Virus record (IMG/VR): IMGVR_UViG_3300047160_003205
Span: 1 to 64,000 of that record
Length of the DNA: 64,000 nt
Strand: one strand, 5' to 3'
Source: a virus
Lineage: Duplodnaviria; Caudoviricetes
Shown: piece by piece, positions 16,037 through 60,701 of the stretch
Layout of the letters: every line of letters starts with the position of its first letter
Numbering within the stretch: the stretch's first letter is position 1
The notes under the pieces: generated by a model
Database searches by the model: none
Told to the model about the DNA's origin: nothing
What the model saw: only the letters and a program-made list of their open reading frames with translations
Translations under genes and position numbers: made by a program

Positions 16037-19000
16037 CGAGTTCTCCTAGATACTTGATGGCGGACACTTTGATCATGCGAAAGTCGGGTGGTACAGTGCC
16101 CTTTATGGCGTACAAAGACTTCCCCGCACGCGCTTTATCCAACATCTTCCGACCGATGCGCTCATAGTCAAACCGTCCGATCTTGCAGAAGATTTCATCC
16201 GTATCGTCGCAAAAGTAGGTGTTGAGAACCTGGGTGGGCCCGTTCAGCTTCCGCCCGTCCCGCTGCGCCAGCTTTTGGGCGTCGTTCTCGTCACGCCACT
16301 TAATGCGGCGAGCCATCGCTAAGATCACTACGTTGCCTTCAACTCCTGGCTGGACCCTCTCAATCGGTAGGATCGGGGTCACTATGTTGAGGGGCGGGGC
16401 GGACGTATCTGGGTGTAACCTCCGTATTTGAGCCTTTATGGGGTAGAGATCATCAATCTCTGTGCGCGCCTCAGTCAGCATTCGCTTAAGGGCTGGCTTG
16501 AGCTCGCGTCCGTCCTTACGACTAGCGAGCACTTCAAGAACTTTCTTCGGCCCAATGCCTTTAATCGCTGTGATGGGGCCGACAAGAACCTGACGTCCAT
16601 CTTTCTCCGCAATGGACCAACGCTCAGTCGAAGCCTCGGGGTCAACTGGGGTGTACGTGATCCCTTCTTTATCAAGCTCTCTAAGTATTGCCAGTTGGTT
16701 AGCTGGCTCAGCCTCCGCATCGAGTGTAGCGGCGGCGAACTCCAGCGGGTAGTGTGCTTTGAGCCAACAGCAGTAGTAGCTGACGAGACCATAAGCGATG
16801 GAGTGCGAGTTATGTGTGATAAGTCCATTCTCCAGCGCGAAATTATGCTGCTCGGGCATCTCAATATCATAAGTCTCGCGGATACCGGCATCCTCTATCC
16901 TTTGGAGCTTCTTAATTGCTTGCTTATAGCCGTTCTCCCATACCTTAGTCCGGCCGTGGGCATAATGCCGCTTCTTATGGCAACTGTTACAGAGCCAAAC
17001 TAGGTCTTCAGGTTGGTCCTTACCTGCATTAAAGTCGGTGTGATGAGCTTCCATCCGGACTTTGAACTTCCCGCAATCTTCACATGGATCGTCCTGCCTT
17101 CGTTCTATGAACTGATCCTTGTAGAAGGCGACCCCGGTTGTCCAACCTTTCCCATGTCCCTTTCCCTCTCCAGTAGGTTTATAGCAAGGGATCGGCTCAA
17201 ACTCGACCGAGGTGAACTCGTCCCCCAAGCCAGCTTCCTTAATAGGTTTCCACTCGCCACTGATGAGGAAGCGATGCTCGGGCGTACATACGACTTGGCT
17301 TCCGTCATCAAATGTGTACCGCTTACAAAGCTTCTTGCCTGATTTGATGATCCGAACGGCCTTCTGCGGGCGGCCACGATCATCGGGGAACAGGCTGACG
17401 AGCCAAGGCTTGGACTTTTGTTGCTTTATCCAACGAGAGGGGGCTTCCTCATACTTCTCATACAGTTCAGCGATAGTTCTTTCTTGAGTATTGCAGCCTG
17501 CTATACTAAGTCTAAGCCTAGTCTCTCCATCTAAACACTTATTGAACGACCATGAGGCGTATGTACAAATCTGATCCCATATCTCTTTTGCCTTATCTTC
17601 TTCAATACCTTGAGATGTCGCTCCTGCTCTAAACTTTATCCAATACTTACCAAAAAATTCATCACCCAATATACCACTCATCGCGTGTCGAATGGCACCC
17701 GTATCTTCCCACGAGAACTGACCGATTTCACGAACAATACGTAGAACTTGCTCTTGATACAGTACAACCCCATAACTATCCTTAGTCAATTCAAGTAATA
17801 GCGGGTGTACCTGCGTGATCGGCTCCTCACCCCGCTTCCTCCGAACCCAACGCGACGTTCCGCCCGTCGCGAGGGGGCCGGGACGGACGAGGGCCGTCAT
17901 CGCCGCTACATCCTCAAACCGCGTGAACGTCACCTGGTTCGCGACCGAACGCAGGGCGATCCCCGCGAACTGGAAGATGCCGGCGAAGTGTCCGTTATTG
18001 AGTACGTCAAATGACGCTTGATCATCGAGAGGAATTTTCTCTAGGAAGCCATTGGTTGGCTTCTCGCCGATCAACTCTAGGGTGCGCTCAAAGATTGAGA
18101 GTTGCTTCAGTCCCAGCGCGTCGATCTTTAAGAGGTTGAGCTCAGCCGCATCCTTCTTATCACACATGACAGACTTCGACCGCGCGTCCATGGCGACGAA
18201 GTCAATGAGGGGGTCTTCAGTGAGAACGACCCCCGCCGCGTGCTGGGAGGCATTTACAGGGTGTCCTTCGAACTTAGCGGCGATCAGGACCTCAGGATAC
18301 TCATTCAACAAGGCCTGACCGGCCGCTGTCTCCTTCAGGGTATCTTCAAGGGTATTATTCGCGCGGCTATCCCCCGAAGTGCGTTCGATAAGGTGGTCCA
18401 TAAGCTTGTCGGTGCGCCAGATTGGAATTCGTAAAGCTGCGCCTGCCGCTTTAAGGGCTGATCGTCCCTTGAACATCCCAACCGTTCCGAGCCTCGCCAC
18501 CCGTTGGCTGCCATACTTTTCCTCCGCATATTGGAACACTAAGTCCCGGTTGATGTCCGAGAAATCCACATCGATATCAGGTAGCTCAAACCGATTAGCA
18601 TCAATGAAGCGCTCAAACAGAAGATCGTGCTTGATGGGATCGATCTCAGTGATGTTAAGACAGTAGCACACCAGGCTACCACCTGAAGACCCGCGACCAG
18701 GCCCAACCACCATCTTGGTCTTCGCCCAATTGACGATGTCGGCGAGGATGTAGAAGTAGTCATCGAAGTTCTTGTCACTGATGAGCTGTAGCTCGCGCGT
18801 CAGGCGCTCCTCATACGTTGGATCAGTGAGGTCTAGTCCTTTCGTGATAGCGCCATCCTCGCACATCTTCCGCAGGCTTATGGGTTTTTCTGGGACGAGG
18901 AGGTGGGCTTTCTTTAGTTGTGCTCGGCAGGCGTCTATCGCCAGGTTCCGGTTAGTGAAAGCGTCCGCGATCAGGTCGTCATCAAACCCCACGTTCAGGA

Positions 19001-19667
19001 AGTGGGCGCGAAGCTCATCATCCGAGAGGATGTAGCGAGGGTAGGATTGCGTGGAGGCCCGAAAGCCGAGAGCGATCCTGTACTCGTCCTGATCAGTGTC
19101 CCGGGGGAAGTAGTTGTCGGATGTGGCGATGAACCGCAGCCCCGCATTCCGAACGCGACGTACAAGACCAACAGGAGAACTAGGAGCGAGACCGACAAAG
19201 TAATCAGACCTCGCATCATAAGCCTCGCCCGGGAGACTATCCAGGAGCAATCGCTCCCCAGAAATCTTGATCAGCCCCGGTAGCTTAACGGCTTCATCTG
19301 CACTTAGCGTCGGTTCCTTTCCGGGGTTCCATGTGGCTTTGTAGATGGCTCGATGAAGGTCACTTAGATCATCCTTCGCGAAAAACGACCAGTAGTCCAC
19401 GGGCGGCTTGTTGAGCCCTAGGCTCGGGACCACCCCGATTTCCACCCCATAAAGGGGGCGGATACCCGTCGTCTTACACATCTTTGTCCAGCGGACGAAG
19501 GCGAAGGTGGAAAGCCGGTCACTTATCGGCGCGACTGGTGATCCAATCTCCTGGAGTCGCGAGAGGACGGCTGGAAGATGGCCATAGGCGGTCTTGAAGC
19601 TATACCCGGTTCTGACTCGCATGGCTTTTATGCTGCCTCGGCGCAAACGCGATGAGATGGTGATCAT
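15996..19667 (-). CDS. dnaE: DNA polymerase III alpha subunit with an intein; probable start 19622
   Basis: PHP-like N-terminus, GPGRGSSGGS, LPDIDVDF catalytic motif, SQHAAGVVL, LLKIDALGL, FNK[intein]SHSIAY. Confidence 0.95.
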   Translation of the reverse strand: MITISSRLRRGSIKAMRVRTGYSFKTAYGHLPAVLSRLQEIGSPVAPISDRLSTFAFVRWTKMCKTTGIRPLYGVEIGVVPSLGLNKPPVDYWSFFAKDDLSDLHRAIYKATWNPGKEPTLSADEAVKLPGLIKISGERLLLDSLPGEAYDARSDYFVGLAPSSPVGLVRRVRNAGLRFIATSDNYFPRDTDQDEYRIALGFRASTQSYPRYILSDDELRAHFLNVGFDDDLIADAFTNRNLAIDACRAQLKKAHLLVPEKPISLRKMCEDGAITKGLDLTDPTYEERLTRELQLISDKNFDDYFYILADIVNWAKTKMVVGPGRGSSGGSLVCYCLNITEIDPIKHDLLFERFIDANRFELPDIDVDFSDINRDLVFQYAEEKYGSQRVARLGTVGMFKGRSALKAAGAALRIPIWRTDKLMDHLIERTSGDSRANNTLEDTLKETAAGQALLNEYPEVLIAAKFEGHPVNASQHAAGVVLTEDPLIDFVAMDARSKSVMCDKKDAAELNLLKIDALGLKQLSIFERTLELIGEKPTNGFLEKIPLDDQASFDVLNNGHFAGIFQFAGIALRSVANQVTFTRFEDVAAMTALVRPGPLATGGTSRWVRRKRGEEPITQVHPLLLELTKDSYGVVLYQEQVLRIVREIGQFSWEDTGAIRHAMSGILGDEFFGKYWIKFRAGATSQGIEEDKAKEIWDQICTYASWSFNKCLDGETRLRLSIAGCNTQERTIAELYEKYEEAPSRWIKQQKSKPWLVSLFPDDRGRPQKAVRIIKSGKKLCKRYTFDDGSQVVCTPEHRFLISGEWKPIKEAGLGDEFTSVEFEPIPCYKPTGEGKGHGKGWTTGVAFYKDQFIERRQDDPCEDCGKFKVRMEAHHTDFNAGKDQPEDLVWLCNSCHKKRHYAHGRTKVWENGYKQAIKKLQRIEDAGIRETYDIEMPEQHNFALENGLITHNSHSIAYGLVSYYCCWLKAHYPLEFAAATLDAEAEPANQLAILRELDKEGITYTPVDPEASTERWSIAEKDGRQVLVGPITAIKGIGPKKVLEVLASRKDGRELKPALKRMLTEARTEIDDLYPIKAQIRRLHPDTSAPPLNIVTPILPIERVQPGVEGNVVILAMARRIKWRDENDAQKLAQRDGRKLNGPTQVLNTYFCDDTDEIFCKIGRFDYERIGRKMLDKARAGKSLYAIKGTVPPDFRMIKVSAIKYLGELDGQDELRSLEQSR
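16809..17537 (-). mobile_element. Intein (243 aa) with an HNH homing endonuclease, inside DnaE
   Basis: Begins with Cys1 (FNK/CLDGETRL), block B CTPEH, ends HN/S. Internal CEDC...EAHH...DLVWLCNSCHKKRH is HNH-type. Confidence 0.92.
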
Positions 19668-20413: not shown

Positions 20414-20643
20414 TAGTTTTCGACTTCAGCACTGTATTCGTTATCCCCATCCGCCAAATCATAGGTTTCTTCTTCAGGTTCGAAGAAGTCTTCATTCCAG
20501 TCTAGGACTTTTTGCCAAAAATCGCACCATTCCCCCACCCCCAGGTAATTAGGCCGTTTGACAATGCAGTTTTCTATCTCAACATAGTCACGGTATAACT
20601 CGATCTGGGCTATCAGACTCATGTTGGTTCCCCGTCTCGTCAA
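20413..20643 (-). CDS. Hypothetical acidic protein
   Basis: 76-aa ORF in the operon. Confidence 0.45.
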   Translation of the reverse strand: MTRRGTNMSLIAQIELYRDYVEIENCIVKRPNYLGVGEWCDFWQKVLDWNEDFFEPEEETYDLADGDNEYSAEVEN

Positions 20644-20908
20644 GGGCTGCTAGGATTGCTGCATAGACGATCAGGTCTTCAATGCTATCAGGGTGGCCAC
20701 TCGACCAATTAAACATGTATCGGCCGAGTTTAGCGACCATCGTCGTTAACACATGATAACGAGTGAAGTCCTGAGGGGACCGTAGGCGAACTCCGTTGGG
20801 AAAGAAAGTGCTAAGTGCCGCCCCGACACGCTCATAGTTGGCGCCATAAAGCTGTTCGCGTTCACTAAAGAGTGCTGCGGCAGCACTTAGCTTAGTTGGT
20901 GGACTCAT
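20588..20908 (-). CDS. DUF6378 / nucleotide-modification-associated-like helical protein
   Basis: ER..LYG.NY...KLGRY....HPDSIEDLIVYAAIL pattern. Confidence 0.6.
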   Translation of the reverse strand: MSPPTKLSAAAALFSEREQLYGANYERVGAALSTFFPNGVRLRSPQDFTRYHVLTTMVAKLGRYMFNWSSGHPDSIEDLIVYAAILAALDETGNQHESDSPDRVIP

Positions 20909-21303
20909 TAGATTGGGCTATTACTTCCACCTGGACCATATGAAGTCCCGTCTGGATCAATCCACCAGTAAGGGCCATGGTCGCCATCGTTGGTCGGAAC
21001 ACGACGGACTTCATAGTGAATATTCCGAAGAGTGTCCTGACCTACGAATTGTCCATTCGGTTCAACAAAACGGACATAACCTTGCCAGTTTTCTTCATCC
21101 TCAAGGTCCAGCCCCTTTTGAAGGGCTTTAGCATTAAGGGCGAAGTGTTCACCCATAGTCTTGCTACGAGTGATCTCAATAATAAGAACTTTCAGCTCTC
21201 GATTGTAGATGATTCGATTTGGGAAGTATCGTTTGGTGAAAGCCTCAGCTTTCGGCATGTACTTCCAGGCTCCCGTAAGGGAGGTCAAATCCTTCTGTCG
21301 CAT
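20908..21303 (-). CDS. Hypothetical protein
   Basis: 131-aa ORF, translationally coupled. Confidence 0.5.
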   Translation of the reverse strand: MRQKDLTSLTGAWKYMPKAEAFTKRYFPNRIIYNRELKVLIIEITRSKTMGEHFALNAKALQKGLDLEDEENWQGYVRFVEPNGQFVGQDTLRNIHYEVRRVPTNDGDHGPYWWIDPDGTSYGPGGSNSPI

Positions 21304-21328
21304 TGCACTCCTCCAGGGTGTCAGAGCT

Positions 21329-21835
21329 TCAGATCAGTTCAACACGCTTGATCATCTTCAGATAGACGCCAAGCACCCGGAGAGTACCGTAAATGCGGTA
21401 ATGGTAGAACCGCTTTCTTTCGATCAGATATGGATTGGTATGGGCTTCAGTCCACATCTCATAAATGATAGGAAATTCAAAGTCCTCAGGGAACTCCTCG
21501 ACATGGATACCAATGTGGCTGAGGAAGGAGGGGTTCTTGCGGAACCGCTTTTGCCAATAGGGGCTTTCAGACCCAAAGGTAACAATCTCAAGCTCAATGC
21601 CTAAATCGTAGTTGAACTCTAACAATGCAGCGACGGACCTGTATTCTCTTTTCCGATGAACGGCTCGACCCATTGCTACATCGGTAATCCACTCGGCATG
21701 CTCTAAGCCGAACAGTTCCTTCAGCTTCTCCCGCGCGTCCGTATCTACTGCATACCAGGCAACCTGATCAACAATCGCTTTTCCGAAGCGACCGATCAAG
21801 GGGGTCGCCATTGCTGGGGGAATTTCAGCCGCCAT
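21329..21835 (-). CDS. VOC/glyoxalase-fold protein
   Basis: IVDQVAW...GIELEIV...FLSHIGIHV metal-ligand pattern of the VOC family. Confidence 0.6.
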   Translation of the reverse strand: MAAEIPPAMATPLIGRFGKAIVDQVAWYAVDTDAREKLKELFGLEHAEWITDVAMGRAVHRKREYRSVAALLEFNYDLGIELEIVTFGSESPYWQKRFRKNPSFLSHIGIHVEEFPEDFEFPIIYEMWTEAHTNPYLIERKRFYHYRIYGTLRVLGVYLKMIKRVELI

Positions 21836-22523
21836 ATGGAATGTCTAGTCCTGCTAGGTACTTGTGACGTTCCTTCGTACTGAGAAGGAATGCGATGAAC
21901 TCCGCCAGCACTTCAGGATCAATCTCTTCCCCCGCCTTTAGCGCGGCCAGTTGGTAGGCTTTCGCTTCTTCCTCGCTCCAGCCGCGCGTCTCCATCACCC
22001 GCTTCTCAATGAGACGGCTCATCTCCGTCCCCCTCAGCTTTCCCGGACTAATGGAGAACGCGGTGATGTTGTGAGTGACCTTAAGCTCACGCGCGAACTG
22101 GGCGGTTAGTATCTTGGCCGCGCCCTTACTCGCATTATAGGCCGCACTCGCAGTCATCGGTACGGTCGCCGCATTCGATACAATGTTAAGCACGGTTCCG
22201 CCGCGAAGGTTCTCCAACAGCGCCTTCGTGACAATGAAGATACCCTTCGCATTGGTATCCATCACCCTGTCCCAGCTATTACTGGAGAGGTCAGGAAGGT
22301 AAGCGACCTCATTGACCCCGGCGCAGTTGATGAGCCCGTCCAGTTCCAACCCTTTCAGGACCGCCGCTTCCTTAGCCACTGCCGCTTCGTCGGTGATATC
22401 CAACCCCGGCAGAGACCAATCAAAGATCGTGATCCCATTCGAGTTGAAGTGGCCAAACATGGCCTGGTAGATCGCCTTTCCCAATCCTGAGGACGCTCCG
22501 GTGATGACATAGCTCCTAGACAA
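21825..22523 (-). CDS. Short-chain dehydrogenase/reductase (classical SDR)
   Basis: TGASSGLG, NCAG, catalytic YNASK, ISPG. Confidence 0.92.
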   Translation of the reverse strand: MSRSYVITGASSGLGKAIYQAMFGHFNSNGITIFDWSLPGLDITDEAAVAKEAAVLKGLELDGLINCAGVNEVAYLPDLSSNSWDRVMDTNAKGIFIVTKALLENLRGGTVLNIVSNAATVPMTASAAYNASKGAAKILTAQFARELKVTHNITAFSISPGKLRGTEMSRLIEKRVMETRGWSEEEAKAYQLAALKAGEEIDPEVLAEFIAFLLSTKERHKYLAGLDIPYGG

Positions 22524-22956
22524 GCTCAGGCCTCCGTGCCCTAACCAGTAAGGTTGTGATGCCCTCCTCAGCCCAAGCAGCCGCTATCGCCTCATTATCC
22601 TCTAGGATCAGGCTGATACGGCGAAGATCACCGCCCATGGAAGTCCGGGCGATGTCGAGTTTCATGATTGCGGCTGGGCGATAATCGTCATTGCCGCGCA
22701 TGTATAGCTCGGCGAACTCGACCCCGTGGTGAATCAGCCAAGTAAGCGTGATCCCCCGGTACTTCTCTGGCCGCCCGGTAAGGCAGATGACATGGTGCCC
22801 CGCTCGCGTGAGCGCGTTCACGAGGGCGATCATCTCAGTGATCGGCTCGTCGTGGACGGACGCTAGGTGGAAGGCGTCCCAGCCATCCTCATCGATCAGC
22901 TTCTCCCGGTGAAAGCCTGCGGAAAGGGTGTTGTCTACATCAGCGACGATTATCAT
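22516..22956 (-). CDS. HAD phosphatase (PNK 3'-phosphatase-like)
   Basis: DVDNT motif I, LTGR motif II, LYMR...K, LEDN motif IV. Confidence 0.88.
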   Translation of the reverse strand: MIIVADVDNTLSAGFHREKLIDEDGWDAFHLASVHDEPITEMIALVNALTRAGHHVICLTGRPEKYRGITLTWLIHHGVEFAELYMRGNDDYRPAAIMKLDIARTSMGGDLRRISLILEDNEAIAAAWAEEGITTLLVRARRPELV

Positions 22957-23150
22957 TGGCCTTTGTCGGGTTCATAGAGGGTTCTTACATCAATGTCACG
23001 TGCGTATCCTGGATACTTAGAAGCGAATTGAAATCCATACAGGAAGCCATTCAGGAAGCTTTCCCGATCCAGTCCGGGTAGCTTCTCACGTGCATGATTA
23101 TATGCATGCGCGATGACGTCTATTGCTTCGTCCTTGAGGATGGTGCTCAT
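22953..23150 (-). CDS. Hypothetical protein
   Basis: 65-aa coupled ORF. Confidence 0.45.
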   Translation of the reverse strand: MSTILKDEAIDVIAHAYNHAREKLPGLDRESFLNGFLYGFQFASKYPGYARDIDVRTLYEPDKGQ

Positions 23151-23894
23151 TCATGAAGCCTTGATTAGATCAATCGCCTTAGCAATCTTTATCTTGGTCT
23201 CATGGTCGAGTGTTAAGGCGACCTCTTCTAGCATCCGTAGCCCCTTGTCGTACTTGTTCTCGAAAAATTGAGACGACCAAGGCCACACTCGCAACGTCTC
23301 CGCTTTCATCTGGCGGACAATATCTACATAAGCCCCTTGAACTCGGAGTGATTCACGCTTCTGAACCAGCTCCACAAGCGTGCGAAGGTTGTACTTAGCG
23401 ATCCCATTCGTGTGGATGCCGCCCGGCAAAAGGTCACGGGCATCCTCTAGTGGCGTACCTCCCGCAACCTCATTTGCATAACAAGCAACGGCTTCTTCCA
23501 TCGCTCTATCAAACATACCAGGAACGCCATTCCGGGTCGGTTTGGTCGCCGTCCACTTTGGTGTATCCCACGTCGCCTCGCTCATATCCGTGACGCGCTG
23601 GGACTGCATGGCGTAGGAGCCTGTGCGAGTACGGACCAGTTGAAGGCTCGTGTTTCGGCTCATTCTCTCGATGCAAAACACTAGGTCAACCATCTCCCAT
23701 GAGGAAGGGATGGTCCCCGCCATGTACTCCATCTCGTCTAATATGTTGCTCTCCGGTTCACTGAGCCGGAAAGCCCCCCAATTTCCCGGGGTTAAGCTGA
23801 AACGGGTGTTCTTCGTGAAGGCTAGGAGCCGGGCCGCATATAGCGGGTCGGGGTGCCCTTTGCCGGTGTAGTCGATGAGCGTGACTTTAGGCAT
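23151..23894 (-). CDS. thyX: ThyX-like flavin-dependent thymidylate synthase homologue (divergent)
   Basis: QLVRTRTGSYAMQSQR corresponds to the RHRx7S motif; EDARDLLP, NLRTL...R...Q. Confidence 0.75.
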   Translation of the reverse strand: MPKVTLIDYTGKGHPDPLYAARLLAFTKNTRFSLTPGNWGAFRLSEPESNILDEMEYMAGTIPSSWEMVDLVFCIERMSRNTSLQLVRTRTGSYAMQSQRVTDMSEATWDTPKWTATKPTRNGVPGMFDRAMEEAVACYANEVAGGTPLEDARDLLPGGIHTNGIAKYNLRTLVELVQKRESLRVQGAYVDIVRQMKAETLRVWPWSSQFFENKYDKGLRMLEEVALTLDHETKIKIAKAIDLIKAS

Positions 23895-24213
23895 CGATCT
23901 TCTCCGGGGTCTTCACTGGCCCTTCGGGAGCCTTTGTCCACGGCTTCTTCAGGGACTCCAGGACCTTTTGGAAGTCATCATTCTTACTCAACCGGCGGAA
24001 GCGTTCAGCATAATAGCCAATCTCCGGAATCACACCCAGGCTGATTTCTTCCAGGTGGACTCCTTTCTCCCGCCCATCCTTTACCACCTTCCTGATCGTG
24101 TACTGGGCGTTTAGGATGAGAAAGGAACACATCCACGCTGATGCTTCCTTGTTCGCTTTTGGGGTGACATCGACGCAAATGACCACGTCACCTTTTCCTA
24201 GATCGTCAGACAT
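23887..24213 (-). CDS. Hypothetical protein
   Basis: 108-aa ORF in the operon. Confidence 0.5.
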   Translation of the reverse strand: MSDDLGKGDVVICVDVTPKANKEASAWMCSFLILNAQYTIRKVVKDGREKGVHLEEISLGVIPEIGYYAERFRRLSKNDDFQKVLESLKKPWTKAPEGPVKTPEKIDA

Positions 24214-24268
24214 TACAATCCTCCGCGCCTTTCTTTATTATACCCCGGATCAACGCTGCTATAGAATG

Positions 24269-25267
24269 CTAAAGAGAGAACGTCCAGCGCTGTCTCACCA
24301 TATCATAGCGCCCGGCGTCCATCCATCCGGCAATGAGCCTGACGTCCTGTATGAGGCTATCCAGCAGCAGCCCAGGCCTCGCCGTCGCATAGCGCCCGAG
24401 CGAGAACACATTGTGCTTGTCGGTGGCCCAGTGGATGAAGAACCGCCGGGCGGTCTCTCGCACAGGCAATATCTTCTGGTAAGCTGAATACACCACTACC
24501 ACTTCGCTCAGGTCTTCGTATTGCATCCCCAACAACTCCATGGCCTCAGTCGCAAGTTGGACTGCTACGAAGTTCTCTATGAGCTGGACATCTGGCACTT
24601 CTACAATGAGCTCATTCCCAGTTACAGTGATGCGAGTGAACCGAAAGGATGGATCAGGAACCAGGAGGCTGACATACGCCTCGCAATCCTTAATCCGTCC
24701 ACGAATGTTCACGCCAGGGATATTCCTGAACTTAATATCCTCCTGATACGGATAATTGAGCGCGGCGGCGAGGGAAGGCATGGGGATCGTACTGATGTAA
24801 GGCCCCTCGCCACTGAAGTCGGCTGTGTGGCCAAATTCCAGGGCTCCACTCAACGGCTCCGCGAGCCTGGCAATGAAATCGGGTGGAGCGATATACCTAG
24901 TCTCAGTGACTAGTCCTTCAGTTATACTTCGATCAGACCGGCGAATACCAGTGTTCTTGAAACTGTAGGAGAGGCAGTCTGCGATTGGATTGCGCCATGG
25001 AAGCGTGCCCTTGATCATGAGGACTTGCTTGAACGGGATACCAGTGGCATCACCGACCGCCCCCGTCCGGAAGCGGAGGGTGGCGGAGTGATTGTTGGGG
25101 AGTTCGGACTGTGATTCGAGGATGGTCGGCTTCCGGCGCAAGAGCAGGTTCCCTGCTAAGAGCCCTGCCATCCCTGCGCCAATGATTGTTACCATTCCAC
25201 CCTCCGGAACGACGGCTGGGACATCACGCCCACTTACGGCTTGGAAGGCTCGGAGAGGACCTAACAA
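24269..25267 (-). CDS. FAD-dependent oxidoreductase (UDP-galactopyranose mutase / HemY-like fold)
   Basis: IIGAGMAG Rossmann motif, FTRIT, NVFSLGRYA near the C-terminus. Confidence 0.7.
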   Translation of the reverse strand: MLGPLRAFQAVSGRDVPAVVPEGGMVTIIGAGMAGLLAGNLLLRRKPTILESQSELPNNHSATLRFRTGAVGDATGIPFKQVLMIKGTLPWRNPIADCLSYSFKNTGIRRSDRSITEGLVTETRYIAPPDFIARLAEPLSGALEFGHTADFSGEGPYISTIPMPSLAAALNYPYQEDIKFRNIPGVNIRGRIKDCEAYVSLLVPDPSFRFTRITVTGNELIVEVPDVQLIENFVAVQLATEAMELLGMQYEDLSEVVVVYSAYQKILPVRETARRFFIHWATDKHNVFSLGRYATARPGLLLDSLIQDVRLIAGWMDAGRYDMVRQRWTFSL

Positions 25268-40021: not shown

Positions 40022-40582
40022 ATGTCTGTTGGAAATGACCCTGACCGTAAGACGCACGCGGTTGCGGCTACGGGGAAGCCCCTGCGCGGGTATCGGAGTG
40101 AGAGGCCATGGCCTGATAATGTGTTTGAGCTAATTTGCCAGGAGTATGAGGGTTCGAGCAAGGGCATTGACAAAATCTGTGAATCCCATCACGACTGGCC
40201 GTCGTATATGACGATTATGCACTGGATGGTAGACGATCCAGAGCTTCAAGCGCGGATGGAGATTGCTCGCCAAATTCACGCTGACTTCCTGGTCGAAGAG
40301 GCAATGATAATTGCCGATGACAAAACCCTCGACATCATTGAGACTGAGAAGGGCTTCGTTATCAACAATGCGGCGGTGAACCGCGCCAAGCTTCAGGTTG
40401 AAACTCGCAGGTGGACAGCTGGAAAGCTTCATGCTGCGCGATTTGGCGAGAAGATGGATGTTCGGGGGGCAGGCGTTCAGCTTACCCAAGTCTTTGCTAT
40501 GCCTAGCAATGGACGGGATGATGATGGGAAAGTGATTGAGGGCGATAAGCCCAAATTGCTTCCATTCTCGAAGGATGACTAG
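40022..40582 (+). CDS. terS: Terminase small subunit
   Basis: HTH ICESHHDWPSYMTIMHW, ARQIHADFLVEE, AVNRAKLQVETRRWTAGKL...FGEK. Confidence 0.85.
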   Translation: MSVGNDPDRKTHAVAATGKPLRGYRSERPWPDNVFELICQEYEGSSKGIDKICESHHDWPSYMTIMHWMVDDPELQARMEIARQIHADFLVEEAMIIADDKTLDIIETEKGFVINNAAVNRAKLQVETRRWTAGKLHAARFGEKMDVRGAGVQLTQVFAMPSNGRDDDGKVIEGDKPKLLPFSKDD

Positions 40583-42643: not shown

Positions 42644-42955
42644 TTACTCGGAAATAACGCGCCAGCGCCGCCGCCGCTCTTCAGGGGTTAGGACTGGGCG
42701 GTCGTTCGCTTTGAACTCGTCCGCGATCCCGAGCTTCGCAGTAATGTCCGCGAAGCGAGCGAGCGCATCCTGGTGTTCGGGCGAAGCCTTAGCTCGCATT
42801 TGGTCGATAACATCCTCGTCCTCGTCTGGGTCGAGCCCCTCGATTCTGTCGAAGAAGTCTTCGAAGTTCTCGGCAGTCCAGCCTTCGAACCGACTGTCTG
42901 CCTCGTAGGCGTCGAGCAGATCGGCTAGTTCGGGAAGCATTTGTTCGGGTCGCAT
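42644..42955 (-). CDS. Hypothetical acidic early protein
   Basis: AGCGGAGAA RBS and promoter at 42983. Confidence 0.65.
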   Translation of the reverse strand: MRPEQMLPELADLLDAYEADSRFEGWTAENFEDFFDRIEGLDPDEDEDVIDQMRAKASPEHQDALARFADITAKLGIADEFKANDRPVLTPEERRRRWRVISE

Positions 42956-43034
42956 TCTGTTTTCTCCGCTAGAGACGCCCCTAGTATAGCTTCGAGACAG
43001 CTGTAGCGTCTATGTCTTTCTTTATCCCAGATAC

Positions 43035-43295
43035 ATACACAAATTTGGGCGCTTATACAGATACCCATCCAAATTTGGGGCCTGATACAAACACAAATTC
43101 TCGTATGTATACGGATGGTATAGTACACACAAATTTGGGCTGTGTACGGATTACCACACAAATTTGGATTAATGTAAAGCTTTATTAGATGTTAGCTTTA
43201 TTCATATACGTCCACAAATTTGGTGAGCTAACGTTGTCTATGCCGGAATTCAGGCACAATGGTGACGCTTAGGCCACAAATTCCACACAAATTAC
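43035..43295. repeat. AT-rich array of (CA)CAAATT(TGG) direct repeats
   Basis: About eight copies, e.g. cacaaatttgggc, ccaaatttgggg, cacaaattctc, cacaaatttggat, cacaaatttggt. Confidence 0.75.
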
Positions 43296-43916
43296 AACAA
43301 CTTAGCTGACCTGGCTAGGCAATAGTGTCCCGTGGCTAGGTTTGTTCTTTCGTCCGTATAAGGACTACGGCTCAGCTGTCCCTGGACACTCGCAGATGGG
43401 CCCAGACAATCCATCTGCTGACATACAATCCATCTGTTAAAGGACAATCCATCTGTGTGCCCCGCAGAGCCAGAGGACAGCGGCAGAGGACAGCGAACAG
43501 CTGTCTCTGAGCTCTGTCCGCCCCACCAGCGCCCACCAGGCAGGGCACAGCCGACAGCGCCCATCGGACATGCAGGCAGAGGCCATGCAGACACTAGTAC
43601 AGTGCAATGCAAGATACCCAGACCCGATCCAGCGCTCAGCCGCGACGATCGGTCGCGGTTCACAGGGGCGCGGCGGATCGTCGCGGAACGAAAGGGGAAC
43701 GAGTATAGACGCCGAGTATTCGTCGCGAATACTTAGGCGAATACTTCGAAGGGGGGCGCGGCGAAACGTCGCGGGCCTAGCTCCGCTATAGGGCTTCTCC
43801 CCTTCGCCTAGCTCGGCTATATCGGGGGTCCGGTCCGGTCGGATCGGGGCTCGGGCCGCTCGGCCCGGGCGGAACGGCTCCCGAAGGGGAGCCCTAGCTA
43901 GGTAGGAGAGACCCCT

Positions 43917-44633
43917 ATTTCCGTCTATTCGAACGTCCCCCGCTATCCCTTCTCCGGTTTCCGGGGAACCCTCTTCGCCGCCGTTCTCGCGAGCCCGGGC
44001 CGCTTCGTCCCGGTCCCGGAAGCGGTCGGGCGCGGCTTTAACGCGACGACGGCCGCGAAGAAAATTAACCTCCGCTTCGCCCGCGACGCGGCTCCCTTCG
44101 AAATCCGGACGCTCGGCCCGGCGAAGGCTCCGACCGAGGTCGGGCTCTTCGTCGTCGGGGCTATCGGCGAAGGCCGCGTCTCCCGCGATAGCCGCTCGGG
44201 CGAGCGGCGAACCGCCGCTAACGACGGCGCCGAAAACTTCGGGAAGGAACGGATCGTCCCGACGCTCGTCCGCTTCGCCGAGAAGCGCGAGGCCGTTTTC
44301 GCCGCTCGCGGCGAACGGATCGAAGCGGCTAAGGCCGTTCTCGCCGAAGAGGAGGCCGAGGCCGCTCCGGAGGCCGCGCCGCTCGCGCCCGAGGCCGCGC
44401 CCGAGGCCGCGCCCGCGCCCGAGGCCGAGGCCGAGGCCGCGCCCGAGGCCGCGCCCGAGGCCGCGCCCGACGCGCCCGACGCGCCCGAGGCCCCGACCGA
44501 GGCCGAGGCCGCGCCCGAGGCTCCCGCGCCCGAGGCCGCTCCGGAGGCCGAACCGACCGAGGCCGAGGCCGCGCCCGACGCGCCCGAGGCCCCGACCGAG
44601 GCCGAGGCCGCGCGCCCGCGTCGCCGCCGCTAA
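43917..44633 (+). CDS. ATT-start protein (238 aa) with an acidic Ala-Pro-Glu repeat tail; absent from the ORF track
   Basis: TAGGAGAGAC-CCCT-ATT start, open to TAA at 44631; GC3-rich codon usage; upstream GCTATATC -10-like box near 43817. Confidence 0.8.
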   Translation: MSVYSNVPRYPFSGFRGTLFAAVLASPGRFVPVPEAVGRGFNATTAAKKINLRFARDAAPFEIRTLGPAKAPTEVGLFVVGAIGEGRVSRDSRSGERRTAANDGAENFGKERIVPTLVRFAEKREAVFAARGERIEAAKAVLAEEEAEAAPEAAPLAPEAAPEAAPAPEAEAEAAPEAAPEAAPDAPDAPEAPTEAEAAPEAPAPEAAPEAEPTEAEAAPDAPEAPTEAEAARPRRRR

Positions 44634-44638
44634 CCCTT

Positions 44639-44664
44639 TCGGGGGAGGCTCCGGCCTCCCCCGA
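44639..44664. terminator. GC-rich hairpin between the two ATT genes
   Basis: TCGGGGGAGGC-TCCG-GCCTCCCCCGA; no U tract. Confidence 0.5.
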
Positions 44665-44696
44665 CCCCTTCCCTCGCTCCGATAGGAGAGACGACG

Positions 44697-44888
44697 ATTA
44701 AGACGCTCCCGACCCCGACCCCGGAAGCCGCCGCCTTCCGCCTTCTCGCCCGCCGCGCCGCCTTCGAAGCGGCCCGGCTCCGCGCCGCCGAAACCGGGCG
44801 CGCTACCGTCGCGGCGATTTACGCGCCGCGCGGGTTTCGCTCCCTCGGCGAAGGCGGGTTCCGCGCCTCGCCGGATTACTTCGACTAG
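44697..44888 (+). CDS. ATT-start protein (63 aa); absent from the ORF track
   Basis: TAGGAGAGAC-GACG-ATT start, open to TAG at 44886; (M)KTLPTPTPEAAAFRLLARR...SPDYFD. Confidence 0.75.
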   Translation: MKTLPTPTPEAAAFRLLARRAAFEAARLRAAETGRATVAAIYAPRGFRSLGEGGFRASPDYFD

Positions 44889-44892
44889 CCGC

Positions 44893-44966
44893 GCGCTATA
44901 CTTCGCGGGCCGGGCGAATACTTCGCTACGGCCCGCGAATACTTCGCCGACCGCCGCGAATACTTC
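44893..44966 (+). repeat. GCGAATACTTC direct repeats at 21-bp spacing
   Basis: Copies at 44914, 44935 and 44956, a variant near 44893; also at 43725 and 43737, with an inverted copy at 43714. Confidence 0.8.
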
Positions 44967-45100
44967 ACACACACACCCGGGGGCACGCTTCGCTCCACCA
45001 CACTGCTTTCCAATGTCGTGAACCTTTGCTGTACACACGGCGCCATAGAGCCACACAGTCCCGGAGGATGTAACCCACATTGATGCGGAATTGTACAACT

Positions 45101-45447
45101 TAACCATACCACACCCAACCTCACCCGACCAAGGAGGACCGAACCCGACCAAACCCGACCAAACCCCACCTGACCACGTTGTGCCACACCAATCCAAACC
45201 TTGCCTCACCGTCCCTTACCAGCAGCAGACCAGACCGTACCTTGCCACAGCAGGGATTCACCGCACCTTACCACACCGAACCTCACAATAGCATACCTGA
45301 CCGTACCCGAACAGACCAGACCCCGCCACACCTAATCTTATCATACCACACCTCGCCCAATCAGACCGTGCCGTACCATACCCGATTTTACCAAACCTGA
45401 CCAGACCACGCCGCATCGGACCAAGCCCGACCACAGGATACCCTGCC
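45101..45447 (-). ncRNA. GGY-NN pentamer array (VIPR-type guide RNA candidate)
   Basis: 69 pentamer slots, 53 with exact GGY plus a variable dinucleotide, two 1-nt register slips; begins at the stop codon of the RAMP-like gene. Confidence 0.75.
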
Positions 45448-46113
45448 TTAAGGTTGCGATAGCTCCCACTTAACCACTACGAAGCGTCCGAAGGTTGGCC
45501 GCATGTCCCCAAGCCCGACCAAGCGCCCCGCGTCGTCAATCACGCGCCGAAGAAACACTGGATCGATGTAATCTGACAGTTGCACCATGAACTGGAAGTC
45601 TGCTCGCCAGCCAGCCTTGATAGCTGGCCGTGTTCGGGTAACGGCACCCCGTTGCACCATTGCCCGTCGCCGGTCCTCGTAGTCCCACTTCGTGATTCCC
45701 AGCGAGGAGAGGTCATTCAAGCTGATTATGCCAGCACGGAACAGGTCCATTGCCGACTTTCTGGGCGACCTGGGGTCCTGTTGGAACTTGCTGGCATTGA
45801 TTATGGAACCTCGCAGGTACTCCCCAGGAATAGAGATTTCCATATCAGCATTGCGATAGACATAGGACTCCAAATTGTCAACCTTCTTGGCCTTCGACCC
45901 TTTTGGGGCCTTGGCCTTTGCCTCGACCTCATCCGTATTGTAGCGGTGAAACAACATTGGAGATGACCCCTCTAAGGTCATATCAACAATGTAGGGGACG
46001 CTCGCCTGAATAACGGGTTCGCCCCCATTGGAGGCTTGCTCCTCGGCTAGGTTAAGCAATTTGTCTCGGTTCAACATCGCCCCCTTCATTGGTTGTTGGT
46101 CCTTCCTCCCCAA
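45448..46113 (-). CDS. RAMP/Cas7-like protein (Vipr candidate)
   Basis: LEGSSPMLFH, IPGEYLRGSI, RTRP...W...F and a C-terminal Gly-rich loop DAGRLVGLGDMRPTFGRF. Confidence 0.7.
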   Translation of the reverse strand: MGRKDQQPMKGAMLNRDKLLNLAEEQASNGGEPVIQASVPYIVDMTLEGSSPMLFHRYNTDEVEAKAKAPKGSKAKKVDNLESYVYRNADMEISIPGEYLRGSIINASKFQQDPRSPRKSAMDLFRAGIISLNDLSSLGITKWDYEDRRRAMVQRGAVTRTRPAIKAGWRADFQFMVQLSDYIDPVFLRRVIDDAGRLVGLGDMRPTFGRFVVVKWELSQP

Positions 46114-48009: not shown

Positions 48010-48241
48010 GGATCCAGCTATCAGCGACCATCCGCATGAAAAAGCTTATGGAGAGACGTAGCTTGTGGGCGGCGTCCCGCACAGCGACAAACTCTCCGGG
48101 TGGGAAGTAGACACTAACTGCCACTGTCCTATCCTTCCCGGCCTCCAGTTTTCGCTGGAGTGCCTCTTGTCCAAGACTCCGCCGATTGTAGGGACGTTTC
48201 ATCTCCGTTACGCTCCGTCCCCCTAGTCTAGTTGAAAACAA
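47993..48241 (-). CDS. Ribbon-helix-helix-like small regulator
   Basis: VSVYFPPGEFVAVRDAAHKLRLSISFFMR. Confidence 0.5.
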   Translation of the reverse strand: MFSTRLGGRSVTEMKRPYNRRSLGQEALQRKLEAGKDRTVAVSVYFPPGEFVAVRDAAHKLRLSISFFMRMVADSWIRDHAK

Positions 48242-49956
48242 AAAGAAAGTCGATGACCCGAGGAATTGTCGCGTGGCCTACATGGGGAAACACGAACTTT
48301 GTTGGCCAGTACCAGGCCGAGGAGTGGCCTGAGCCCCCGGAAGACTGGGAGGCTACCCCGCAGCACGACCCGGAAGCTTTCAATGGCAGTGACCTTCCTC
48401 CCGAGAGCGACGCAATTCTGGCGGATGACACGGAGGAGGTGTACCATCCCGGTCTTCACTCCTACGAGGGCGACAAGGGCTACGAGGACCCCGCTGAACT
48501 GACGGTCCTGAAGAGACGGCACGGGCCACTGAATGTGACGGCTCCTCAGCCGGGTCCCCAGATGAGGTTCCTGACGACGGCGGCTGACATCGCCATCTAT
48601 GGCGGGGCGGCGGGCGGCGGGAAGACATGGGCGCTGTTGTTCGAGGCGTCCCGGCACATTAAGAACCCCTACTATGGCGCCGTCATCTTCCGCCGTACCA
48701 GTGTGCAAGTCCGGAATGAGGGTGGCCTGTGGGATGAATCTCTCCGCATGTACCCCGGCCTGGGCGGGGCTCCCCGCGAGCATGACCTTTGGTGGAAGTT
48801 CCCGTCCGGGTCCAATATCTCCTTCGCCCACCTGGAGCACGATAAGAATGCTCACGACTATCAGGGGGCACAGATCCCACTGATCGCCTTCGATGAGCTG
48901 ACACACTTCACGGAAGCCCAGTTCTGGTACATGGTTAGCCGGAACCGCTCCACATGTGGGGTGAAACCCTACATCCGTGCTACGTGCAACCCTGACGTTG
49001 ACAGCTGGGTGGCAAAGTTTATTTCCTGGTGGATAAACCAGGACACTGGCTATGCTTACCCGGAGCGTGCGGGAAAGCTTCGGTACTTTGTCCGCATTGG
49101 TGATAAGCTCCACTGGGCATCTGACCCTAAAGCTCTGTCCCGCTTCCGCAATCCAGTAGACGGGAAGCCCATCAAGCCCAAGTCTGCCACCTTCATCCCG
49201 TCTAAGCTCACCGACAACAAGGTCCTGACCGAGTCCGACCCGGGGTATATGGCGAACCTGTTGGCGCTCCCTCTCGTGGAGAGGGAGCGGTTGCTGAATG
49301 GTAACTGGAAGATACGGTGGACGGGTCAACAATTCTTCAATGTCCAGAACCTACTCGTGAACGGGAGGCCGGTGGCGAACCCCACCAATACGGACAGTGT
49401 CTTCGCTGTACTCGACACAGCAAGTAAGACTGGTCATCAACACGATGGCACGGCTGTCGTCTGGGTTGCGAAGAACAAGTACACTGGATATCCGCTGACG
49501 ATACTGGATTGGGAGACGCTGCAGATCAGCGGGAACCTGTTGGAGAAGTGGTTGCCGTCCGTTTTTATACATGGTGAGAGACTGGCTCGTCGTTACGGCG
49601 CACGCGAAGGGTTCGTGGGTGCTTGGATTGAGGACAAGCAATCCGGAACCATTCTCCTTCAACAGGCACGTCGGCGGAACTTCAACGTCTTCCCGATTGA
49701 ATCCAAGCTGACCCTCTTGGGCAAGGACGAACGCGCACTGAGTGTGAGTGGGTATGTTGGAACGGGGAAGGTCAAGGTAGCTGAAACCGCCTTCAATAAG
49801 ACCCTCACCTATAAGGACATAACGCGGAATCATTTTCTCTCCCAGGTTGAAAGTTTCTCTATTGCCGACCCGGACAATAAGTCCCGGGCCGATGATTTGC
49901 TCGATTGCTTCTGCTACGCTGTCGCTATCGGCCTCGGCGATTGGGAAGGGTTCTGA
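48232..49956 (+). CDS. terL: Terminase large subunit
   Basis: Walker A GGAAGGGKT, Walker B IAFDELTHF, coupling RATCNP, RuvC-like LDTAS...DDLLD. Confidence 0.93.
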   Translation: MKTKRKSMTRGIVAWPTWGNTNFVGQYQAEEWPEPPEDWEATPQHDPEAFNGSDLPPESDAILADDTEEVYHPGLHSYEGDKGYEDPAELTVLKRRHGPLNVTAPQPGPQMRFLTTAADIAIYGGAAGGGKTWALLFEASRHIKNPYYGAVIFRRTSVQVRNEGGLWDESLRMYPGLGGAPREHDLWWKFPSGSNISFAHLEHDKNAHDYQGAQIPLIAFDELTHFTEAQFWYMVSRNRSTCGVKPYIRATCNPDVDSWVAKFISWWINQDTGYAYPERAGKLRYFVRIGDKLHWASDPKALSRFRNPVDGKPIKPKSATFIPSKLTDNKVLTESDPGYMANLLALPLVERERLLNGNWKIRWTGQQFFNVQNLLVNGRPVANPTNTDSVFAVLDTASKTGHQHDGTAVVWVAKNKYTGYPLTILDWETLQISGNLLEKWLPSVFIHGERLARRYGAREGFVGAWIEDKQSGTILLQQARRRNFNVFPIESKLTLLGKDERALSVSGYVGTGKVKVAETAFNKTLTYKDITRNHFLSQVESFSIADPDNKSRADDLLDCFCYAVAIGLGDWEGF

Positions 49957-50603: not shown

Positions 50604-50789
50604 CTAGCCTCCTCCAGTAAAGGTATTCGCGATCACATCTACGATGAAGATGATCCCCATCAGCAGGAGTAGCACCAGAAAGCACAGGCCTAGGGCGGCA
50701 GCAATGAATCGCATCGCGTCCCTCTCCGCGACAGCCCTCTCGATCTTAGTCGTCATAAGCCCTCTCCTCCCGCGCTTTTGCCCGCTCAC
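50604..50789 (-). CDS. Small membrane protein
   Basis: One TM helix. Confidence 0.45.
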   Translation of the reverse strand: MSGQKRGRRGLMTTKIERAVAERDAMRFIAAALGLCFLVLLLLMGIIFIVDVIANTFTGGG

Positions 50790-51780
50790 GCGCAGCTTTC
50801 TGCTTAAGGGCCACGGACTTCATATGCTGCCGCCGCCGCTCGCGCTCCTCATCAGTGATCTTCATCCTCCAACCAATGGGGTGTAAGCGGCCCACCCTGT
50901 GTGTGGATTGAATATCGGGGAGCGGCCCGAGGTCGGTGGGAATGTCGGGCGTCGTCCCCAGAGGGATGGGTAGCCCCTTCCCCCGCGCGTATTCATACCG
51001 CCCTCTATTCTGCGCCTTTAGCATTTCCTCATTTGTCAGTGCCCGGGGCTTCCGTCCCCGTTTCGCTGGATTGTTCACTCGTTGATACCCCCGGTAGTTC
51101 AGTGACAGGTTCTTCGGCAACATTATCCTGTAGCGACGCACGCACAACACCAGGACCTGGCGGATGCGCTCACGCGACACGCCGTGAACCTCCCCGGTCG
51201 CTTTCAGCGTCTCCAGCCGGATGTAGTCCCGCACGATATTCGCCCAGTACTCGGGCATGGACGGATAGATCGCGGCATTGTGCTCCTCGATCTCACGCGC
51301 CCGCGCCTTCTCCGCGTCATGCGCGAACCACACCTTCGCTTCCTCTTCCAACCGCGCTTCCTCCGCTTCCCTTTTATCCAGTGCCCTGATGTCGTCCGCC
51401 TTCAGTGTCGCCTCCGCCATCACTTCCGGGTCCGTCAACCAGAACTTACTGACCGTGATCGGGTTCACGCCGCCGTACTTGTCGTACACATGGGATGCGA
51501 CCCGGCCCGCGAGGATTTCGCTCACCACTGCGACCTTAAAGGCGTGTGGATACCTGGAGGGATACTTTGGCGCGCCCCATGCCGCCGCCCGCTCGCGGCG
51601 GCGCGCGTGCCCCAGCTTGCGGTCCTCGCGGGTGAAGCGGACCCTGTAGATTTTGGCGGCGGACTCCAGCTGTTTCACCCGGAAGCCCAGGGCTTTCGCG
51701 ATGTCGATGCGGCTCACCCCTTCGGCGGCCAGCTTCCTGAGAAGCTTCTGCTTCTCGTCCGTCCAAATCCGCCTGCCCAT
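50746..51780 (-). CDS. Multi-HTH regulator (GcrA-like N-terminal HTH, sigma region 4-like HTH)
   Basis: WTDEKQKLLRKLAAEGVSRIDIAKALG; TLKATGEVHGVSRERIRQ. Confidence 0.65.
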   Translation of the reverse strand: MGRRIWTDEKQKLLRKLAAEGVSRIDIAKALGFRVKQLESAAKIYRVRFTREDRKLGHARRRERAAAWGAPKYPSRYPHAFKVAVVSEILAGRVASHVYDKYGGVNPITVSKFWLTDPEVMAEATLKADDIRALDKREAEEARLEEEAKVWFAHDAEKARAREIEEHNAAIYPSMPEYWANIVRDYIRLETLKATGEVHGVSRERIRQVLVLCVRRYRIMLPKNLSLNYRGYQRVNNPAKRGRKPRALTNEEMLKAQNRGRYEYARGKGLPIPLGTTPDIPTDLGPLPDIQSTHRVGRLHPIGWRMKITDEERERRRQHMKSVALKQKAARERAKAREERAYDD

Positions 51781-59828: not shown

Positions 59829-60199
59829 GGAAGTGCGGGCCGTGTACGTTTTGCTGTACGGCGATGGGGATTGACGCCCTAGAGAAGCCCGGTTGGCAGC
59901 ATTGTAAGCATGCTAGGTCTAATGGTTGCTCGATCTATCATGATCGCCCGGATGAATGTCGGAATTTTAGCTGCTTATGGTTGTTGGGTTGGCTTCCGAG
60001 AAACATGCGGCCTGACAAGGTTGGCGGATTGGCTGCTATGTTCGCAGGAGAGAACTACATTTATGTCACTGGACGACGAGACGCCGGTATAATCGAAGCC
60101 CTGCGGGCCATGGGCTGGAGAGGCTTGATCAAGGTAGATAACTCGCGCTGGACGCCTGCTGAGCGGCGCGAGATGGGAGAAGGGTTCATACATGGCTAG
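59753..60199 (+). CDS. YkgJ-like CxxCxxCC metal-binding protein (true start probably near 59820)
   Basis: CGPCTFCC...C..ARSNGCSIYHDRPDECRNFSCLWL. Confidence 0.7.
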   Translation: MQIQLPVPARRTPPGNADPQRSRALRKCGPCTFCCTAMGIDALEKPGWQHCKHARSNGCSIYHDRPDECRNFSCLWLLGWLPRNMRPDKVGGLAAMFAGENYIYVTGRRDAGIIEALRAMGWRGLIKVDNSRWTPAERREMGEGFIHG

Positions 60200-60701
60200 C
60201 AGAACTGCATGGACGGCAGGTAATGGCGTTGGCCTAACCTGGACCTCCTGTTTCGCTTCTGCCGATCTTCAAAGCTTAGCATACTTTAGCTCGGTTATGA
60301 GTTCGTCGGCCGACATCGCCAACGACACTTACCTCGATCAATACGCGGATGTTGCCTGCCAGTTCACAATCGCGTCGTCTACCATCGCCGCTGGCGCCTA
60401 CATGGCCCTATACCTGTTGGACAGGTACAACATCGATGGAACGAACACTTGGTATGGTGGCGGCCTTTATGCTTCGGGCGGGACCCAATCGACCACTAAC
60501 TTCCTGAGCGGTTTCGTAGGCTCAGTGGCCTTGGATACTAGGGCCACAGTGACGCTTATCCCGTGTATCTTCAAGGGCATCGTCCTGCCTCCGAGGCCAT
60601 TCCGGTTTGGTATTCAAAACGGATGTGGGTTCACATTGAGCGCCACGGCAGGCTCCCAGCGGATTTACTACACGACGTATAACGTCAACCTGAACAACTA
60701 A
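60192..60701 (+). CDS. Putative virion structural protein
   Basis: 169-aa beta-rich ORF in the head module. Confidence 0.5.
   Translation: MASRTAWTAGNGVGLTWTSCFASADLQSLAYFSSVMSSSADIANDTYLDQYADVACQFTIASSTIAAGAYMALYLLDRYNIDGTNTWYGGGLYASGGTQSTTNFLSGFVGSVALDTRATVTLIPCIFKGIVLPPRPFRFGIQNGCGFTLSATAGSQRIYYTTYNVNLNN

Follow-up and report, generated by a model that had tools for sequence, protein, structure and literature searches.

A CA/TG-free island in a soil phage genome as a possible footprint of the phage's own DNA modification

What reads single CA/TG steps in phage DNA, with consequences so severe that this one dinucleotide is banned over 1.3 kb, although the ATG start codon and five amino acids are lost with it? 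The question is raised by a locus of a tailed phage (Duplodnaviria; Caudoviricetes) known from the IMG/VR record IMGVR_UViG_3300047160_003205, of which positions 1 to 64,000, called here the window, were analysed. Between 43665 and 44966, neither CA nor TG, its complement, is present, and this island includes two genes that gene callers overlook. The likeliest reason for the purge, to which a probability of about 0.4 is given, is that the phage modifies a base of its own DNA in TG/CA context and keeps this cassette free of the mark.

The original prediction, made from the letters alone, held that this interval lacks both dinucleotides where more than 100 would be expected. Direct counting gave 0 CA and 0 TG over 1,302 bp, against 71 CA and 58 TG (about 130) expected from base composition. 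The nearest CA on each side start at 43663 (left) and 44966 (right). Elsewhere in the 78,844-bp genome, the longest gap without CA/TG measures 59 bp, and no other dinucleotide pair leaves a gap above 363 bp in the whole genome. At the genome-wide density of 9,590 sites in 78,844 positions, the chance of a 1,300-bp gap is about e^-170. The island has a G+C content of 73%, with a peak of 86%, compared with about 56% for the genome, and an excess of CpG with an observed/expected ratio (o/e) of 1.45. Its edges proved to be as sharp as described beforehand. On the left, the DNA is CA-dense, and the final CA before the island sits in the loop of an 18-bp inverted repeat. On the right, the island stops where the last of three GCGAATACTTC repeats finishes and a CACACACACAC run (CACACACAC run) starts.

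An assembly artefact was looked for in independent data. The IMG/VR genome was assembled as a circle with a 97-bp overlap, and its 97-bp end repeat is this assembly overlap. The stretch occurs in 24 runs from soil metagenomes and in 0 RNA runs. Logan contigs from three runs other than the probable source sample, namely X2 (43559-44413 and 44584-45066), X21 (43422-44321), and X24 (43377-44372 and 44842-45312), cross the left edge, and those of X2 and X24 also cross the right edge, with 0 differences. Since contigs of independent soil runs bridge both edges unchanged, the island is real and not an assembly artefact.

Because TG is absent, no ATG, GTG, TTG, or CTG occurs on either strand, and gene callers are therefore blind there; their output in the island is one spurious read-through frame and nothing else. 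The island and its elements, including two open reading frames (ORF1 and ORF2), are the following.

43665..44966, no strand assigned: CA/TG-free island with control DNA, two genes, and a downstream repeat block; 0 CA/TG, unique in the genome
43640..43686, no strand assigned: 18-bp inverted repeat, 89% complementary, with an 11-nt loop, lying across the left edge
43725..43747, plus strand: two GCGAATACTT(C) repeats, upstream of ORF1
43753-43774: related direct copy of the inverted repeat
43917..44633, plus strand: ORF1, 238 amino acids, ATT start 8 nt after AGGAG (43904-43908)
44697..44888, plus strand: ORF2, 63 amino acids, basic (pI 10.7), ATT start 8 nt after AGGAG (44684-44688)
44914..44966, plus strand: three GCGAATACTTC repeats with 21-bp spacing, the last one stopping exactly at the right edge

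ORF1 and ORF2 display an identical ribosome-binding site, TAGGAGAGAC, and the same start geometry. The G+C content at third and second codon positions is 0.86 versus 0.61 in ORF1, the ranges obtained overall being 0.77-0.86 versus 0.58-0.64. Periodicity, spacing of the ribosome-binding site, and start position in homologues all fit, and ORF1 and ORF2 are read from these sequence features as protein-coding genes with a non-NTG start; the call is weaker for ORF2, for which no homologues were found. Both proteins include zero Met, Trp, Cys, His, and Gln. In that of ORF1, a basic N-terminal domain (pI 10) is followed by a long helix, an acidic tail of Glu/Ala/Pro repeats, and RRRR at the C-terminus. 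Pfam and PHROGs searches returned nothing for either protein. The predicted structure of ORF1 has a mean pLDDT of 59, lowered by the disordered tail, and a Foldseek search of its N-domain against PDB gave weak winged-helix-like matches alone (E at least 0.2), while remote sequence relatives of this domain are joined to other domains. The product of ORF1 is probably a DNA-binding protein, and the GCGAATACTTC repeats are candidate protein-binding sites. A promoter and terminator scan found nothing inside the island and no sigma-70 consensus promoter, an Rfam scan gave one chance-level miRNA row and nothing else, and no clear shared promoter appeared on alignment of the upstream regions of four ORF1-family members.

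The purge is shared by relatives of ORF1. Homologues are encoded on three contigs, L021 (P0003), L022 (P0004), and L023 (P0005), and the purged gene family occurs in three independent assemblies with 50-60% amino-acid and about 70% nucleotide identity. L021 is an 11.9-kb JGI contig syntenic with the window (DUF5906 primase-helicase, Sf6-like small terminase, small genes), with which it also shares the CAAATTTG and CCATCTG repeat arrays and a CACACAC motif at the far edge. It includes two ORF1 paralogues about 900 bp apart, one purged and one ordinary. The ordinary copy, P0003, has 54 CA/TG for 72.5 expected, contains Met, Trp, His, and Gln, and reaches 69% G+C. The other copy, an uncalled gene on the opposite strand, is found in a 777-bp gap with 0 CA/TG for 83 expected and starts with ATC, preceded by CTAGGAGG. 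On L022, an 850-bp ENA contig, 4 CA/TG are present for 94 expected, the ATG start included, and within 826 bp this ATG is the sole CA/TG. L023, also adjoining an Sf6-like terminase gene, is partly purged (23 for 81 expected). Thus, behind a conserved TAGGAG-type site, the codon at the homologous start position is ATT in the window, ATC in the second copy of L021, and ATG in L022. The non-canonical start seems to follow from the exclusion of TG, as the L022 homologue has ATG at the same position.

The purge extends beyond the genes in all three members, over 135-250 bp upstream and 80-140 bp downstream. A random substitution of 5% of the island would create about 20 CA/TG, and the purged copies have diverged by about 30% in nucleotides. 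Comparison of these copies demonstrates that the purge is maintained by continuing purifying selection, since it survives a divergence over which drift would add dozens of CA/TG. The pair of purged and ordinary paralogues in L021 fits a protein needed under two DNA states. Neither blastn with 42900-45500 nor tblastn with the ORF1 N-domain gave a match among 50,697 phage records, and patterns back-translated from ORF1, either from the single protein or from the alignment, yielded no confirmed relative in IMG/VR and JGI metagenome contigs. No CA/TG-free stretch above 82 bp was found at six loci with homologues of the large terminase (TerL), and Rhizobium phage RHph_N28_2, whose TerL is the nearest, has no island.

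The avoidance acts on nucleic acid and not on codons, as had been proposed from the letters, codon junctions, non-coding flanks, and even the start codon being affected. The synonymous switch noticed earlier at codon junctions is borne out by counts: codons ending in C precede a codon starting with A in 0/93 cases, versus 320/563 elsewhere (P 1e-30), and the ordinary paralogue gives 19/43 in the codon-junction comparison. Codons ending in T before a codon starting with G amount to 0/333 (P 5e-27). Opposite the CA/TG sites of the ordinary paralogue, the aligned dinucleotides of the purged copies are CG (25), GA/TC (26), TA (14), TT (9), and others. A single mutational or repair direction is excluded, because the replacements are mixed and none is dominant.

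The mechanism favoured here can be pictured as follows. The island would be a self-contained expression cassette in which two genes stand behind control DNA of their own and a strong ribosome-binding site. The phage would mark its own DNA by base modification, the enzyme reading the TG/CA dinucleotide, and the cassette would have to stay unmarked. It would then work on the incoming, fully marked genome, via host RNA polymerase or DNA-binding proteins, ahead of all other expression. Three suppositions are made here, namely that a CA/TG-context mark presumably exists in this phage, that the cassette would be expressed first, and that the mark would be harmful to it. A modification in TG/CA context sparing a first-expressed cassette was one of three hypotheses offered without preference in the original prediction, beside evasion of a host agent and a structural or packaging need; it has become the best-supported option, if indirectly, through enzymes reading NTG and GA and through the GA/TC purge of Pseudomonas phage iggy, although no modification gene was found.

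By analogy, a single dinucleotide as the avoided unit is what would be expected from a base-modifying enzyme. Among phage T-dioxygenases, 5mYOX176 prefers NTG and 5mYOX97 prefers NTC (PMC13229309), and DpdA of phage iggy has a strict GA motif for dPreQ0 modification (PMC10484667). Iggy was used as a positive control for the local purge of a known modification motif. Its most extreme composition-corrected local dinucleotide depletion is indeed GA/TC, with an o/e of 0.15 (11 versus 73.6 in 600 bp), located at 59976-60628 of MN029011.1 in about 650 bp of divergent non-coding DNA at the record end; this phage has terminal repeats. When nine genomes were scanned for nine non-TA dinucleotide pairs, o/e values below 0.28 were restricted to CA/TG in the window (0.00), CA/TG in Serratia phage MyoSmar (0.17), and GA/TC in iggy (0.15). 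A term search of PMC10484667 gave no passage on intergenic, promoter, or early DNA at the genome ends of iggy. A host agent common to these phages is argued against, because the purged dinucleotide varies by lineage and, in the one phage with a known motif, is that very motif.

MyoSmar (NC_048800.1) has 3-8 CA/TG per 200 bp at 200-1800 versus about 32 elsewhere. It shares with the present phage a syntenic module that includes a helicase, DnaE, DnaQ, SDR, HAD-PNKP, ThyX, phrog_4828, and two Pam3-like genes, at 24-46% identity, and the best matches of DnaE are found in E. coli Wifcevirus and in Serratia and Pantoea phages. One block of this module is a candidate, and the only one in both island-bearing lineages, for the seat of a nucleotide or DNA modification pathway.

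20588-25267, minus strand: phrog_4828, ThyX, HAD-PNKP phosphatase, SDR, and small unknowns, upstream of DnaQ and DnaE and syntenic with MyoSmar gp032-gp040

A wider claim, held more tentatively than the explanation of the island itself, is that this phage and the Wifcevirus/Myosmarvirus group mark every CA/TG step with an undescribed base modification and leave one cassette unmarked for use at the very start of infection. A local dinucleotide purge would then be a general footprint of the modification motif, GA/TC in iggy and CA/TG here.

Several points weigh against a mark made by the phage itself. Outside the island, 6-bp palindromes without CA/TG are strongly avoided (o/e 0.61) and those with CA/TG are not (o/e 0.87; Mann-Whitney P 0.005); this contrast is suggestive of an own mark, but it is weak (Fisher P 0.15 for strongly avoided sites) and is also seen in PY059 and WTB, which have no island. 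CATG (0.70) and TGCA (0.73) are mildly under-represented genome-wide. Tet_JBP (PF12851), ParB_N (PF02195), and N6_N4 methyltransferase (PF01555) have no match in the genome. The TGT model PF01702 also finds none there, and it misses DpdA in the known carriers CAjan, 9g, and iggy; negatives obtained with it are uninformative on phage DpdA, because the model fails these three positive controls. In CAjan (GA+GGC), the purge goes down to 0.47 at most, and 9g shows none. The parallel in iggy amounts to one case, noticed post hoc, and the purge there covers non-coding DNA, not genes. Wifcevirus resists EcoRI despite 18-19 GAATTC sites, which are sites without CA/TG. Finally, WTB, FoX7, and PY059, which have the same polymerase module, are island-less, so that the trait is not universal among phages with this module.

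In the main rival explanation, a live one though less probable than the own mark, the island enters the cell first, must survive and be expressed before any phage protection, and has been purged of whatever a host agent reads, CA/TG and restriction sites included. Other sites are purged from the island as well. GANTC, which the cell-cycle methylase CcrM of alphaproteobacteria recognises, is absent from the window's island (0 versus 6.8 expected) and occurs once over three islands for 14.1 expected (P 1e-5), most other 4-mer palindromes not being depleted in these three islands; outside the island, the genome has 138 GANTC for 225 expected. The 13 most avoided hexamer palindromes are also missing from the island (0 versus 17.8 expected from its own dinucleotide make-up). 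The same sites are, however, avoided in the bulk genome (o/e about 0.24), as illustrated by CCGCGG (0/27.8, observed/expected), CTCGAG (0/14.1), ACGCGT (0/11.5), CGTACG (0/7.9), CGATCG (2/24.4), ACCGGT (1/13.6), and AGATCT (1/12.1). Since avoided palindromes are shunned both genome-wide and in the island, the phage DNA, island included, is exposed to restriction, and a simple shielding by an early protein does not fit. Moreover, none of the 16 palindromes containing CA/TG falls below half of expectation outside the island, the lowest being TGATCA (19 versus 37.4), so such enzymes exert no strong pressure. To our knowledge, no host agent reads CA/TG. The suggestion in the original prediction that first-injected DNA evades a host agent gains from MyoSmar, whose purged block (about 200-1800 bp) begins about 200 bp from the physical end, inside a PhageTerm-mapped terminal repeat of 3,559 bp. 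The position of the island between the small (40022-40582) and large (48232-49956) terminase genes, among small minus-strand genes and adjoining repeat arrays, speaks for early entry, as does a precedent in which an early-injected region decides restriction sensitivity (PMC12455610). Against it, the small terminase is Sf6-like, a type often linked to headful packaging, and iggy purges another dinucleotide, namely its own motif.

What probability remains after an own mark and first entry is shared by diffuse insulation, constraints at the RNA level, and causes that nobody has yet proposed. CA/TG is the most-used step in protein-DNA recognition, as in the sigma-70 -35 element TTGACA, the extended -10 TG, sigma-54 sites, operator half-sites, and transposon ends, and its removal might blind the cassette to host and rival-phage regulators and to stray promoters without any single agent. 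The scan indeed found no sigma-70-type site in the island, every NTG start codon is excluded on both strands, and private GCGAATACTTC repeats are located at both island ends. This insulation is nevertheless improbable, as a diffuse benefit hardly accounts for an absolute purge that costs the ATG start and five amino acids and is held through 30% nucleotide divergence, and as it leaves the iggy GA/TC parallel unexplained. Still less credit is given to a constraint on RNA or translation, by which a transcript without CA and UG would escape a ribonuclease, or one without NUG would use only an IF3-sensitive AUU/AUC start. Avoidance of CA and UG in one RNA strand looks strand-symmetric automatically, and the ATT and ATC starts are real in the family, but the flanks are purged as well in three members, L022 keeps ATG, and we know of no ribonuclease with CA plus UG specificity. 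Least of all does a bias of mutation or repair without selection account for the island, whether TG-to-CG biased repair, a process like repeat-induced point mutation (RIP), or import from a high-G+C donor. The high G+C content and the CpG o/e would agree with it; yet the replacements run in several directions, TA does not predominate among them as RIP would require, the ordinary paralogue is equally G+C-rich and has CA/TG, and the edges are sharp and stand at functional landmarks.

In addition to the intein-bearing DnaE, DnaQ, ThyX, the HAD-PNKP phosphatase, and the SDR, the genome encodes a GcrA-like regulator, and its TerL is nearest to those of Rhizobium phages. The host is likely a soil alphaproteobacterium, judging from TerL and the GcrA-like gene. 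The latter encodes a protein with a GcrA-like N-terminus and matches to HTH and sigma-70 region 4-like domains, possibly a phage transcription factor connected with CcrM methylation, a noteworthy link in view of the GANTC purge. Directly right of the island stands a VIPR locus, VIPR being composed of a Vipr RAMP protein and a GGY/NN vrRNA array (bioRxiv 10.64898/2026.04.26.720920). These and other neighbouring features are given below.

15996-19667, minus strand: DnaE-type polymerase gene with an intein carrying an HNH endonuclease domain (Pfam Intein_splicing 729-953, HNH 862-901)
43023..43293, no strand assigned: AT-rich array of about seven (C)ACAAATTTGG sites with the 8-bp palindrome CAAATTTG, between minus-strand small genes and the island; putative divergent control region
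43405..43455, plus strand: three GACAATCCATCTG repeats with 19-bp spacing, also in L021
45101-45447: GGY/NN pentamer array following the Vipr gene at once, about 67 pentamers (38 in unbroken register, an 11-nt break, about 29 more)
45448-46113, minus strand: Vipr (RAMP) gene, 221 amino acids, phrog_4652, directly right of the island
50746-51780, minus strand: gene of the 344-amino-acid GcrA-like protein

The (C)ACAAATTTGG array has the same place in L021. For VIPR, 13 Vipr homologues were identified in IMG/VR at 51-56% identity, and no vap gene was identified at the VIPR locus of the present phage. Read with the vrRNA guide code and its 1-nt-skip rule, the array gave one 17/20 match among the sequences searched, no better than shuffled arrays. 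The 13 loci with Vipr homologues show no CA/TG-free stretch above 82 bp. VIPR was considered as a part of the island and rejected: the syntenic L021 has an island without VIPR, 13 Vipr phages have no island, and no guide target rose above shuffled arrays. VIPR is a direct neighbour of the island, not part of it.

Two observations stand apart from the argument. The word depth of contigs over 43340-45010 is 2-3.5 times that of flanking contigs in X2, X21, and X24, and X14 has no cover there; neither was used as evidence, because the runs had been picked by this same stretch and because contig depth cannot rank regions. A higher depth could come from a terminal repeat, from sharing among strains, or from better sequencing of unmarked DNA. 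In the Burkholderia phage vB_BglM_WTB (OQ735257.1), CA/TG is sparse throughout the genome, at about 0.78 of the expected density (37 per 400 bp; 60% G+C), and no local island is present.

Full-text literature searches found no description of such an island, in keeping with what had been stated at the outset, and no published system accounts for it. New here are the non-NTG starts at a conserved position, the purged and ordinary paralogues side by side, the co-purge of GANTC, and the GA/TC parallel of iggy, which makes the idea of an own mark a general rule open to testing. Should the modification enzyme of the phage itself be the reader, the island would reveal a new DNA modification in an already puzzling phage group: Wifcevirus is restriction-resistant with 'no known genome protection' and has very short latent periods (PMC11990801). 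In that case, unknown modifications and their contexts would become predictable from genomes and metagenomes alone, the purge being a computable signature for uncultured phages. If the reader is a host factor, the island points to an undescribed defence or sensor that acts on DNA as it comes in, and this in such distant hosts as enterobacteria and soil alphaproteobacteria. The question is directly testable with the paired paralogues of L021 and with cultured relatives that have the trait.

Among known systems, the closest likeness is to MyoSmar, in which CA/TG is also purged from small genes with TAGGAG-type ribosome-binding sites and from their own control DNA. The purge of the present phage is, however, absolute (0 in 1,302 bp) and reaches the start codons, whereas MyoSmar keeps 3-8 per 200 bp; moreover, the proteins of the two islands show no homology (hhalign probability below 1%), and the structural and terminase modules are unlike, the present phage residing probably in a soil alphaproteobacterium. 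In the first-step-transfer (pre-early) DNA of T5 and the early-entering region of T7-like phages, a short first-used DNA does not tolerate recognition sites before protection is in place. The island resembles them in being devoid of restriction sites (the 13 palindromes and GANTC), although here the bulk genome avoids the same sites, and the T5 and T7 regions avoid particular restriction sites and not a whole dinucleotide. With the enzymes of iggy and of the 5mYOX group, the likeness lies in a specificity for one dinucleotide, read on both strands, and iggy has a local purge of its own motif at a genome end. The iggy purge, by contrast, covers about 650 bp of non-coding DNA and no genes, and no such modifying enzyme was detected in the present phage. 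Finally, AUU-initiated genes of the infC type also combine an ATT or ATC start with a strong Shine-Dalgarno site, whereas the non-canonical start of the island genes looks like a by-product of the exclusion of TG.

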